Assembly (NCBI GenBank): GCA_041399065.1 | Contig: JAWKTN010000003.1 | Location: 87,511 to 151,510, forward strand | Reading direction: 5' to 3' | From: Pirellulaceae bacterium | Lineage (GTDB): Bacteria; Planctomycetota; Planctomycetia; Pirellulales; Pirellulaceae | Length of the DNA: 64,000 bases | In this document: piece by piece, positions 21,335 through 25,597 of the stretch | How the letters are laid out: every line of letters begins with the position of its first letter | How positions within the stretch are numbered: position 1 is the first letter of the stretch | Position numbers and translations under genes: made by a program | The notes under the pieces: generated by a model | Told to the model about the DNA's origin: nothing | Databases searched by the model: none | The model's input: only the letters and a program-made list of their open reading frames with translations

Positions 21335-24300
21335 ATGTTCCCACGTATCCGTTCGCAACGATCGTTTGCCATGTTGGCCTTCGGCACCTGGGTCGTGTCG
21401 ACATGGTTGACAACCGCCGCGGTAGCGGACCAGCAGGCAATGCTGGCCACCTACGATCAGCGGGGGGAAACGTATTTTGCCCTGGGTCTGCAACCGGGAC
21501 AGGAATTGGCACCAGCGGCAGCGCGCGACGTGGTGGTGTTGTTTGACACCTCGGCCAGCCAAACGGGTGTGTACCGCGACGATGCGCTGGCGGCGTTGGA
21601 GGAACTGGGCAGTCGATTGTCATCACAGGATCGCGTCCGATTGGTGGCGGTCGATATTCGGCCAGCGGATGTGACGGGGGAGTTTGTGGCGGCGAATTCG
21701 GACGCTTACCAGGCAGCGGTCGTGGCACTGGAGCAACGCGTTCCGCTTGGAGCCACAGACATGTCACTGGCGTTGTCGTATGCCGTCAAGTGTTTTGTGA
21801 AAGAGACGGCCGGTGTTCACCGAGTCGTATACATTGGCGATGGTCTCAGTCGGGCGAACCTGTTGGATTCGAAGGAGTTTGCCGAGTTGAGTGAGCAGCT
21901 AGTATCGCTGCGGGTGTCGGTATCGGCGTTTGCGATTGGTCCGCAAAGTGACATTGCTTTATTGGCGGCGATCTGCAATCAAACGGGGGGCAATCTGTTG
22001 ATCGACAATCCTGAAATCACCCCTCAAGCGGCGGGGCTTGAATTGGCCCGTTCCGTGTTGGGTGCCGTTGCCTGGCCCACGGATGTCCAACTGCCAGAAC
22101 AATTGGCTCAGGTTTATCCGACGCAACTTCCTCCGTTGCGATCTGATCGTGACACGATTTTGGTAGGTACATTGTCGAATCGTTCGGAACAGCCGTTGCC
22201 GGTCCAGGTGACGGCTTCCGTGGACGGCAAACCGACCACACTGAAATGGTCGGTCGCGCCCGCGGTTTCCAATGACGATCATGCGTACCTGCCGCGGCTG
22301 TTGGAATTGGCCGAGGCCGATCAAGGGCGCACGTTGCCTACGCTTGGCAGCGATGGACTGCGGGAAGTTCGCCGACTGCTGCTGGCCGACGCAGACACTT
22401 TTGCCAAACTCGGTGCCCAAGCCTTGGCCAGTGGCGACCACGAAGGCGCTCAACGGTTGGCCGACGCCGCATTGAAATTGGATCCGTCCAATTCAAAGGC
22501 GGAAGTGTTACATGCCGCCAGCGATCGGGGCCCTGTCGCCACCCCATCGCCGCTGCCCGAAGAAGACGGCGACGAGCCGGTATTGCGTTTGGGACAACGG
22601 CTTGCTCCCGATCCTTTCAATCCTTCGGGCCAAGAGGAGATTGTTGGCACGCCCGTCGAATCGCCATTCATCGATGCCCCGATTGATGGTACGGTCTTGC
22701 CGGCGCAAGCCATTGAATCGGTTCCAGCCCCGTTCGCCGGCACACCCGGTGGTGTGATCAGTGACAATGGCAGCTTCCTCAATGAAGTCGAACGCCGACG
22801 CAAGGCGATCGAAGGACGGGTCAAGGCGGAAGTTCGTGACGGGTTGGTGTCGGCACGTAACAATATGGCGACCAATCCCGAAGCGGCGATCGAAGATCTG
22901 AAACTGCTGTTGCAACAGGTCGTTCGCACGCCAGACATCGGCGCCGACACCCGCTCGCAAATGATTGAAGAATTGGAATCCGGGATTCGCGAATCGCAAC
23001 GCCGCAAATTTGAAAAGGATGAACGCGATGCCTGGGCCCTGTCCAACAAAGCTGCCGCCGAAGATCGCCAACGTATCCACGACGAGATGATGCGCGACGA
23101 AGTTCGCCTGAAGCAACTGATGGCTCGCTTTAACGCCATGATGGACGAAGGACGTTACCGAAAGGCCCTGGAAGTTGCCGTGCATGCCGAAGAATTGGAC
23201 TCGCGTGGCGTCGTTCCCCATAACGCTCGCTTGCTCGCCAACCTCGTCGGCAACTACGAACAAGCTCGCTACCTTCAACAACTCAAGGAAGAAGGCTTCA
23301 TCAACGCCATGATCGAAGTCCAACGTGCTCATATCCCGACTCCGGATGAACCACCATTGACCTACCCCAGCGCCGAAGTCTGGCAAGCGCTGACCAAACG
23401 CCGTGAGAAATGGAAGTCGATGGACCTGGCCGCCGGCAACAACCCGCAAGAAGAAAAGATCTCGCGGGCGCTCAATGAAGAGACCAGCGCCGAGTTTATC
23501 GAAACGCCATTGTCCGATGCCGTCGCTACCCTGGCGGAAAAACACGGTATCAACATCGAACTCGATACGCGCGCCCTGGAAGATATGGGCGTCGACAAGT
23601 CGACGCCCATCAGCCGCAACCTGTCGGGCATCACCCTCCGCTCCTTCCTGCGTTTGATCCTCAAAGAACTCGACCTCACCTACGTCATCCGTGACGAAGT
23701 GCTCCTCATCACGTCCCAAGAAGAAGCCGAATTGGCGCTGATCACCAAAGTCTATCCGGTCGCCGACCTTGTCCTCCCCATCAGCTCAGGAGGCATGGGC
23801 GGAATGGGTGGCATGGGCATGATGGGCGGCATGGGCGGAATGGGAATGGGCGGCATGGGAGGCGGAATGGGTGGCATGGGCATGGGTGGTATGGGCGGAA
23901 TGGGTGGTATGGGCATGGGCGGAATGGGTATGGGTGGAATGGGCATGGGTGGAATGGGAGGCATGGGCGGAATGGGAGGCATGGGCGGAATGTTCAATGT
24001 CGATGATTCCGTTTCCTTTTCGGCCTACGCTGTCGACGACACGCTCAGCTTGGGTAGCAAAGCCCCAGCGGGCGTCAACGATACTGCTCCTTCACTCGAC
24101 TCGAACGAGCTTCGTCCCATTACCTTGGAAGCGGAGCCCAATCTGACCGAAACGCAACAATGGGATCGCTACTTTACGCAACTCAACGAAAGCCCTGCAT
24201 ATCGTCAGCAATCCGACGAGCCGGGTGTGACGGTACAGCGTGAGAAGCACAACGCTCGGGTTCGCGAAACGGTCCGTCAGTTGATGAATGACAAGAAGTT

Positions 24301-25597
24301 CACTGCGGTCCAGGCGATAATCATGTCGGCCTTGCGTCACGGACATCCACAGCCGTGGATGTACGAGGCGTTGGGATTGGCGATGCAAGCCGGGGGCGCA
24401 CCGGCGGAGGACCTGGAACGAGCTTTGATGTCGACGGCGGATTTCAGCCAGACGTTGGACGAAATGTATTATCTGGCACGATATCTGTCACGAGTTGGAT
24501 TGGACGGACGCGCGTTGCAGATGTACCGCGAGATCTCCCAGGCCAATCCAACACGGCCCGAGCCGTATGTCGAGGCACTTGCGGTGGCCCAGCGAGTCCA
24601 AGATCTGGAAACGATTCAATGGGCCTGTGTCGGGATCCTGAAGCAGGCCTGGCCCAGCGACGAGGCAGTCGTCGAAGCTCGCGCACGTCGTGCCGCCGTA
24701 TTGGCAATGAAGACGCTTCAGGAAAGTGGTCGCGAGTCGGAAGCCCGCGAGTTCCGGGATGCACTTAATCGGGCCTTGGTACGCGACTGTGTTGCCAAAG
24801 TGGAATGGACCGGTAATGCCGACATCGACATCATGATCGAGGAACCGTCCGGCACGGTCTGTTCGTTACGCAATCAACGCACTGTTGCTGGCGGAGTGAT
24901 CTTGGGTGACACTTCTTCGATTGTGGGACGCCCCAATGGCAGCAACTCGTTTAACGAAACGTATGTCTGCCCCGAAGCATTTGCTGGCCGCTATCGCCTG
25001 GTCATTCGCAAGATCTGGGGAGACGTTACCGCTGGCAAGGTGACGGTTGAGATCACCAAAAACGTTGGCACGAGCCAACCCAAGACTATCCGTCAACAGA
25101 TACCGATTGGCAGCGACGACGCGATGGTCGTGTTTGACCTGGACGAAGGTCGTCGCGTAGAACCGTTGGACGAACAGCAAGTTGCCAACGCCGTTCACAA
25201 GCACATCGAGGTAGGCCGTGCCGTGTTGGCTCAGCAAGTTAGCGACACCGCCAGCAGCGACGCAGCATTGGACCTGGCCCTGGCTCGCCGTGGATTCGGT
25301 TTGGGCAACGCGAACCTGCGCAATCTGCTGGGACGTTCGGCTGTCGGATTTCAGCCTGTGATCACGACGCTTCCAGAAGGCACCACGCTATCAGCTACCG
25401 CCGTCGTCTCCTCCGATCGACGTTACGTACGGATTAACGCCACACCATTTTTCTCGGCGATCCGCGACGTGTTTACGTTCAACTTCGTCACCGGCGATCA
25501 GACGCAAGTTGAGAATAACGGCGTCGGCAACCTGGGGAACTCAGGCAACAACGGCAACAATGCCGATAACGGCGATAACGGCGACGCGGCACAGTAA
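21335..25597 (+). CDS. Large secreted VWA (MIDAS) domain protein with a secretin/TonB-N-like (STN-like) domain and a Gly/Met low-complexity tract
   Basis: Start chosen at the ATG at 21335 (MFPRIRSQR..., GGAG 7 nt upstream, signal peptide). A VWA MIDAS motif is present (VVVLFDTSASQTG). A mid-protein segment (FIETPLSDAVATLAEKHGINIELD...LDLTYVIRDEVLLITSQEEAE) resembles secretin/TonB short N-terminal domains. A 70-aa (GGM)n tract is encoded at 23782-23990. Confidence 0.8.
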   Translation: MFPRIRSQRSFAMLAFGTWVVSTWLTTAAVADQQAMLATYDQRGETYFALGLQPGQELAPAAARDVVVLFDTSASQTGVYRDDALAALEELGSRLSSQDRVRLVAVDIRPADVTGEFVAANSDAYQAAVVALEQRVPLGATDMSLALSYAVKCFVKETAGVHRVVYIGDGLSRANLLDSKEFAELSEQLVSLRVSVSAFAIGPQSDIALLAAICNQTGGNLLIDNPEITPQAAGLELARSVLGAVAWPTDVQLPEQLAQVYPTQLPPLRSDRDTILVGTLSNRSEQPLPVQVTASVDGKPTTLKWSVAPAVSNDDHAYLPRLLELAEADQGRTLPTLGSDGLREVRRLLLADADTFAKLGAQALASGDHEGAQRLADAALKLDPSNSKAEVLHAASDRGPVATPSPLPEEDGDEPVLRLGQRLAPDPFNPSGQEEIVGTPVESPFIDAPIDGTVLPAQAIESVPAPFAGTPGGVISDNGSFLNEVERRRKAIEGRVKAEVRDGLVSARNNMATNPEAAIEDLKLLLQQVVRTPDIGADTRSQMIEELESGIRESQRRKFEKDERDAWALSNKAAAEDRQRIHDEMMRDEVRLKQLMARFNAMMDEGRYRKALEVAVHAEELDSRGVVPHNARLLANLVGNYEQARYLQQLKEEGFINAMIEVQRAHIPTPDEPPLTYPSAEVWQALTKRREKWKSMDLAAGNNPQEEKISRALNEETSAEFIETPLSDAVATLAEKHGINIELDTRALEDMGVDKSTPISRNLSGITLRSFLRLILKELDLTYVIRDEVLLITSQEEAELALITKVYPVADLVLPISSGGMGGMGGMGMMGGMGGMGMGGMGGGMGGMGMGGMGGMGGMGMGGMGMGGMGMGGMGGMGGMGGMGGMFNVDDSVSFSAYAVDDTLSLGSKAPAGVNDTAPSLDSNELRPITLEAEPNLTETQQWDRYFTQLNESPAYRQQSDEPGVTVQREKHNARVRETVRQLMNDKKFTAVQAIIMSALRHGHPQPWMYEALGLAMQAGGAPAEDLERALMSTADFSQTLDEMYYLARYLSRVGLDGRALQMYREISQANPTRPEPYVEALAVAQRVQDLETIQWACVGILKQAWPSDEAVVEARARRAAVLAMKTLQESGRESEAREFRDALNRALVRDCVAKVEWTGNADIDIMIEEPSGTVCSLRNQRTVAGGVILGDTSSIVGRPNGSNSFNETYVCPEAFAGRYRLVIRKIWGDVTAGKVTVEITKNVGTSQPKTIRQQIPIGSDDAMVVFDLDEGRRVEPLDEQQVANAVHKHIEVGRAVLAQQVSDTASSDAALDLALARRGFGLGNANLRNLLGRSAVGFQPVITTLPEGTTLSATAVVSSDRRYVRINATPFFSAIRDVFTFNFVTGDQTQVENNGVGNLGNSGNNGNNADNGDNGDAAQ
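23782..23990. repeat. Imperfect 9/12-bp repeats (ggcatgggcggaatgggtggc...) encoding an uninterrupted ~70-aa Gly/Met tract
   Basis: Direct read. The antisense ORF 23752..23997 (PMPPIPP...) is its mirror artefact. Confidence 0.9.

Follow-up and report, generated by a model that had tools for sequence, protein, structure and literature searches.

The question raised by this locus is what a long, uninterrupted run of glycine and methionine residues does within a VWA protein that is apparently exported. The initial annotation of the 64,000-nucleotide stretch of Pirellulaceae DNA analyzed here (referred to as the window) described a Gly/Met tract of about 70 residues at positions 23782-23990, located between an STN-like and a C-terminal domain. 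The translated ORF bore out this description: the tract comprises 68 residues, its coordinates differ from those given by a few bases (Table 1), and its placement between the two domains agrees with the Pfam VWA_3 match, the N0 fold and the AF2 model. The tract, which is preceded by VYPVADLVLPISS and followed by FNVDD, is made up of 43 Gly (63%) and 25 Met (37%) and no other residue, and can be divided into 17 GGM, five GM, one GMM and one GGGM units, with 17 MxxM and six MxM motifs among them. A six-frame search of the window revealed no other run of this kind, and by our own arithmetic a 68-residue G/M run would arise by chance with a probability of ~1e-65 when G and M make up ~11% of residues. 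An assembly artefact was ruled out, since more than 100 independent assemblies have a Gly-rich tract in frame at this position; an overlapping minus-strand ORF (23752-23997) was attributed to mirroring of the repeat and rejected.

Table 1. Features of the VWA protein and its gene. Positions are those of the window; all amino acid (aa) numbers are counted from TTG 21221.
Feature	Position	Strand	Basis or remark
Gene of the VWA protein, presumably exported	21335..25597	+	listed ORF from TTG 21221; 1458 aa
Probable Sec signal peptide, MFPRIRSQRSFAMLAFGTWVVSTWLTTAAVA/DQQ cleavage	21335..21427	+	judged by eye from sequence
VWA domain, aa 103-259	21527..21997	+	Pfam VWA_3
Helical/coiled-coil region plus N0-like domain, aa 518-856	22772..23788	+	BLASTP against L014 secretin
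N0/STN-fold domain, aa 741-840, directly upstream of the tract	23441..23740	+	
Anchor motif VYPVADLV, aa 844-851	23750..23773	+	precedes the tract in every homologue
Pure Gly/Met tract, 68 aa, aa 857-924	23789..23992	+	ORF translation
Whole predicted disordered segment, aa 843-960 (tract plus acidic/polar spacer)	23747..24100	+	AF2 pLDDT
Short conserved post-tract motif YAVDDTLSLGSK	24026..24061	+	post-tract sequences of the family
TPR-like helical superhelix, aa 977-1185	24149..24775	+	
Beta-sandwich domain, aa 1188-1307	24782..25141	+	AF2 secondary structure, pLDDT >90
C-terminal mini-domain, aa 1380-1427 (VITTLPEG...SSDRRYVRI...TFNF)	25358..25501	+	hhalign
Second low-complexity tail, C-terminal, G/N-rich	25514..25594	+	ORF translation, family alignment

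Judging from the N-termini of homologues, which align approximately 35 aa before a conserved 'TY..G..YFAL' block (family consensus), the ATG corresponding to aa 39 of the listed ORF is the probable start of the protein. Its signal peptide has no lipobox Cys. The host can be assigned to the VWA proteins by its VWA fold (VWA_3 match with E 6.2e-17 and 62.5 bits, the cut-off being 27) together with a MIDAS-type DxSxS motif, present as DTSAS, and the sequence DTSASQ is nearly invariant across the family. Downstream of the tract, MFNVDD (23990-24007) represents a degenerate first copy of the conserved post-tract motif, for which the family consensus is [FM]F-A-V-E-D-D-L-x-L-G-x-K with 'FxVxDxxxxLxL' as a further consensus. 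A Foldseek search with a 718-aa multidomain model returned TPR matches only, and the beta-sandwich domain had no match in Pfam. The C-terminal tail is Gly-rich in homologues as well, often with Phe as the last residue.

The DNA encoding the tract had been described as imperfect 9/12-bp repeats. The repeat is indeed imperfect (TRF reported periods of 9, 15, 18, 24 and 63 with 66-77% matches), but the unit size needs correction, as most units are of 9 bp (GGM) or 6 bp (GM). None of the 43 Gly codons is GGG, compared to 23% in background genes (P ~1e-5), and of 14 other loci examined, most likewise show a depletion of GGG in their tracts. Exact DNA repeats within the tract extend to at most 24 nt, compared to 51 nt under the use of a single Gly codon; since this length matches that obtained in synonymous-codon shuffles (22.4 +/- 3.8), a recent perfect-repeat expansion of the DNA was rejected. 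Because GGG is avoided and the longest exact repeat is this short, the tract appears to have been kept as coding sequence over time.

The homologue search proposed in the initial annotation located a Gly-rich tract directly after a VYPV[AG]DLV motif, in the same place as in the query, in at least 113 Pirellulales homologues, a number that refers to those with the anchor motif and a complete tract. The Y, V, D and L of the anchor are invariant among them. The tracts are at least 30 aa long in 97 of the 113 proteins and have a median length of 45 aa (IQR 41-50), the query tract being the longest and the most Met-dense of the family. Their pooled composition is 74.8% G, 10.7% M, 5.4% F, 3.3% L, 2.8% Q and 0.1% P, while D, E, K, H, C and Trp do not occur in any of the 113. 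In 28 tracts, at least 80% of the residues other than Gly are Met, 19 tracts are mixed, and the remaining 66 are Met-poor (Met below 30% of the non-Gly residues), with F, L and Q standing in for Met. These three states are scattered over an NJ tree of the homologues and change between close relatives: P0046, which has a pure G/M tract, is ~80% identical to P0064 and P0074, whose tracts are Met-free, and P0004 and P0005, which are 90% identical, show swaps of M to F/L. The nearest relatives of the query itself share 44% identity among genome contigs, 47% at one metagenome locus and 50% in a search of 5.8 billion proteins, each being the best value, and homologue pairs of 70-90% identity were used as a proxy for a strain-level comparison of tract length. 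The expectation that the repetitive DNA would make the tract prone to length variation held insofar as unit indels of 3-16 aa separate the tracts of ~90% identical homologues, but not with respect to the DNA, which is degenerate and avoids GGG, nor to the family as a whole, in which the length band is narrow. Moreover, Pirellulales, Isosphaeraceae and Phycisphaerae all have the tract at this junction. These comparisons show that the Gly-rich tract is a conserved feature of the family rather than a lineage-specific one, that its pure G/M form is one lineage's version, and that Met is interchangeable, not conserved. The absence of the tract from close orthologues had been named in advance as an outcome that would speak against a function; this absence was found for the methionines, but not for the tract.

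The surroundings of the tract within the protein point to a relationship with secretins. The domain directly upstream has the secretin N0/STN fold, according to the fold comparison of a separate model of this N0-like domain. By sequence, N0/STN matches stayed below significance (E 0.08 in Pfam; E 0.06-0.12 for a profile against PDB sequences, where the top matches, likewise below significance, were PilQ or PupA). In addition, aa 518-856 could be aligned by BLASTP over ~340 aa with aa 360-706 of L014, a secretin from Phycisphaerae (25% identity, E 8e-10), in a colinear alignment that ends at the VYxVxDL motif, showing that the N-terminal module of the VWA protein is homologous to that of true secretins. 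L014 and a second Phycisphaerae secretin, L015, contain the Pfam Secretin domain with E 6e-29 and E 5e-31, respectively, and both carry a G/M tract of ~90 aa at the same point after the coiled coil and N0; no obvious secretion operon surrounds the L014 gene. Other secretins of this type have Gly-rich linkers of up to 115-127 aa with M, Y, L, F, Q or S as guests, and some related ones have a short acidic linker without a Gly-rich core; anchor-based extraction yielded linkers from 51 of 150 representatives among the secretin matches listed, and fractions are indicative only. Because of these short acidic linkers, and because the G/M run of the orthologue P0085 is only 10 aa long, a long Gly-rich tract is not indispensable. 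No link between planctomycete secretins and Gly-rich or Met-rich tracts was found in the literature.

Of the properties of the secretin family, the query protein thus has the N0/STN fold and the N-terminal module, but not the C-terminal beta-barrel domain: Pfam Secretin (PF00263) was not found in it even at E values up to 10, and its C-terminal half gave no significant BLASTP match to the L014 secretin. Since the Pfam secretin domain is missing, only the shared N-terminal module allows knowledge to be transferred from secretins to this family. As a lead rather than proof, the C-terminal mini-domain may resemble one beta-hairpin of the secretin domain, as an hhalign comparison of the family profile with a secretin profile gave a probability of 81% (E 1.2e-5) over 47 columns at aa 1380-1427, a region in which AF2 confidence is 50-74.

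AF2 predicts the tract to be intrinsically disordered, with pLDDT values of 35-45 over aa 843-960 (model residues 103-220, all below 50) between two flanking domains with values above 90. Together with the conserved position and length, the Gly and uncharged, mostly hydrophobic residues, and the N0 domain that precedes the tract, this disorder fits one of the ideas put forward initially, a disordered elastomeric spacer. On balance, we therefore consider it probable that the tract is this lineage's form of a conserved, disordered and uncharged Gly-rich linker, which directly follows the secretin-type N0/STN domain in one family of planctomycete VWA proteins, presumably exported to the periplasm, and that it acts as a flexible entropic tether. 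The role of such a linker would be physical and not chemical, that of a long and very flexible entropic spring that would measure about 45-55 A in its coil form and could be stretched to as much as about 210-260 A. The protein could thereby vary the distance between its N-terminal part (VWA, coiled coil, N0) and its C-terminal part (TPR, beta-sandwich, secretin-like hairpin), probably across the enlarged, changeable planctomycete periplasm, while the sparse hydrophobic guests between the glycines, Met here and Phe or Leu elsewhere, would provide weak cohesion or elastic recoil of the kind seen in abductin, the GGM tails of GroEL or FG domains. Export, tethering, elasticity and cohesion are inferred here. 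Flexible linkers in bacteria are ordinarily polar (P/T/S/E/K), and the preference for hydrophobic guests is not accounted for by a model of a pure spacer. In phage f1 pIV, a flexible 19-aa linker between N0 and N3 enables N0 to extend across the periplasm to its partners in the inner membrane (PMC8563730), and the periplasm of planctomycetes is known to be enlarged (PMC11131199). Like the query tract, the pIV linker is disordered and directly follows N0, but it is not a G/M polymer.

Two further ideas of the initial annotation assigned the function to the methionines themselves. As a metal sponge, the tract would be a periplasmic Cu(I)/Ag(I) buffer with Met-thioether sites in its MxxM and MxM motifs, as in CopC, PcoC, CrdA, CusF and the Mets motifs of Ctr1. 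The number of these motifs, the apparent export of the protein (by a signal peptide judged by eye) and a Met load that no other family member reaches are in line with this proposal; Met-rich periplasmic loops of CopC, PcoC and CrdA bind Cu(I), and CusF and CopA share with them and the query the MxxM/MxM spacing and a presumably periplasmic location (PMC9182242). General chemistry moreover predicts that weak in vitro binding of Cu(I)/Ag(I) by a tract peptide is likely. However, the motifs of these proteins form short loops on folded proteins that handle copper, with conserved Met, often His/Trp ligands, and copper operons, while the query belongs to a VWA/N0/TPR scaffold family in which F, L or Q replace Met in 66 of 113 homologues, with swaps even within 80-90% identical proteins, and the co-ligands His, Cys, Asp and Trp are absent from every tract. 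Neither the conserved ligand Met nor the association with copper or silver genes that characterizes Cu(I)/Ag(I) proteins of the CopC/PcoC/CusF/CopA type was found: among 27 further large ORFs of the window searched against Pfam, no cop, cus, pco or P1B-ATPase genes were detected, and the only P-type ATPase belongs to the Cation_ATPase_N/C type. Genes for secretion, pili, copper handling or Msr do not adjoin the VWA protein gene, and 10 homologous loci have no conserved neighbors except for a CitMHS transporter at two. A metal site is thus improbable. We consider it still more doubtful that the 25 exposed methionines form a redox element, either as a sacrificial sink for ROS or as a Met-sulfoxide switch of linker stiffness or cohesion. 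Very dense, solvent-exposed Met in a segment predicted to be disordered and exported would suit such a role, and two thioredoxin-like proteins are encoded 8-12 kb from the gene, although evidence of linkage is absent. The exchange of Met for F, L or Q between proteins of 80-90% identity makes Met appear dispensable in most orthologues, the annotated ORFs of the window include no Msr genes, and synteny is not conserved. Neither property is hence supported as the conserved function of the tract; since the tract contains 17 MxxM and six MxM motifs, either may be a lineage-specific side property, and the longest and most Met-dense tract of the family could reflect such an added function in the query lineage.

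The remaining alternatives concern the tract as a polymer. It might be a functionless product of slippage, a low-complexity expansion tolerated at a domain boundary whose composition is set by drift of the repeat unit. The rapid turnover of sequence, unit and guest among close relatives, the 3-16 aa indels, the 10-aa run of P0085 and the related secretins without a Gly-rich core are as expected from such a process, but the presence of a tract in essentially every family member within a narrow length range, the strict exclusion of charged residues and the occurrence at the same junction in distant lineages are not, and GGG depletion and degenerate synonymous sites favor long-term maintenance over recent expansion; a slippage origin without function therefore seems hardly probable. 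Alternatively, GGX tracts brought together in an oligomeric ring could form polyglycine-II/PPII bundles or a meshwork like that of FG-nucleoporins, which would plug or gate a channel. Secretins form rings of 12-15 subunits. The same tracts are found in secretins, the three-residue period of GGX fits PPII/PGII geometry, the guests are hydrophobic and charges are absent, a secretin-like hairpin may be present at the C-terminus of the query, and the GGM tails of GroEL sample PPII conformations and may plug the ring as a bundle (PMC12571646). In contrast, the AF2 monomer model leaves the tract without structure, the repeat lacks a regular period in the query (GGM, GM, GMM, GGGM) and is highly uneven in orthologues (GGGGGGF and the like), a ring is putative for the VWA family, and the secretin-like match extends over just 47 columns at 81% probability. 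We regard such an ordered or gel-like assembly as unlikely, and favor the flexible tether.

A close compositional counterpart of the query tract is the C-terminal (GGM)n tail of GroEL and mitochondrial Hsp60, which also consists of Gly and Met alone in GGM units and is disordered or invisible in structures with partial PPII character, similar to the disorder predicted here. These flexible tails have a physical role, as a hydrophobic barrier and in contacting clients, rather than one based on Met chemistry (PMC12571646). They are, however, only about 13-19 aa long, cytoplasmic, and point into a 7-fold ring, whereas the query tract is 68 aa long, internal to an apparently exported VWA/N0/TPR protein, and contains Met that is not conserved among orthologues; the query thus shares the G/M-only GGM segment, but not the chaperonin tail facing a ring cavity. 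Likewise, abductin of the bivalve hinge ligament is a Gly/Met(/Phe)-rich, Pro-poor and essentially uncharged random coil, and serves as an entropic elastomer with the consensus GGFGGMGGGX (PMC13052691), which is close to the mixed M/F tracts of the orthologues P0004, P0009 and P0034. The tracts have an abductin-like composition (Gly at or above ~60%, Met/Phe, very low Pro, almost no charge, predicted coil), but abductin is an extracellular, cross-linked animal material, and the query tract has no Phe and no evidence of cross-linking. The likeness is one of convergent composition, not of homology. The GLFG domains of FG-nucleoporins are similar in being uncharged, Gly-rich and disordered with sparse hydrophobics, and many orthologues contain repeats of the form G(n)F or G(n)L. 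The resemblance is no more than an analogy: the query has Met instead of Phe, lacks spacers rich in Asn/Gln/Ser/Thr, and is only putatively located at a channel. In a speculative extension, which we consider rather unlikely, the Gly-plus-hydrophobic tracts (G/M, G/F, G/L, G/Y) after N0 in planctomycete secretins and the secretin-derived VWA family would together be a bacterial periplasmic counterpart of FG-nucleoporins and abductin, with at least a dozen copies forming a cohesive elastic mesh under an outer-membrane ring that gates the channel or couples outer-membrane complexes (possibly crateriform structures) to the retractable cytoplasmic membrane, and to which Met would here add a response to oxidation or Cu(I).

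As a natural (GGM)n polymer, the query tract is extreme, exceeding the GroEL tail in length by a factor of about four to five, and the family comparison cautions that a Met-rich low-complexity sequence should not be taken as a metal site until orthologues have been compared. With M, F, L, Y and Q as guests at constant length, the family offers a natural substitution series from which sequence-property rules of Gly-rich disordered linkers may be derived. The combination of N0 with a linker that is long, uncharged and Gly-rich, and in which the hydrophobic guest is freely exchangeable, represents a previously undescribed design of the planctomycete envelope and, if its reading as a tether or elastomer is true, would provide a molecular handle on the envelope-spanning machines that cope with the wide and variable periplasm of these bacteria.

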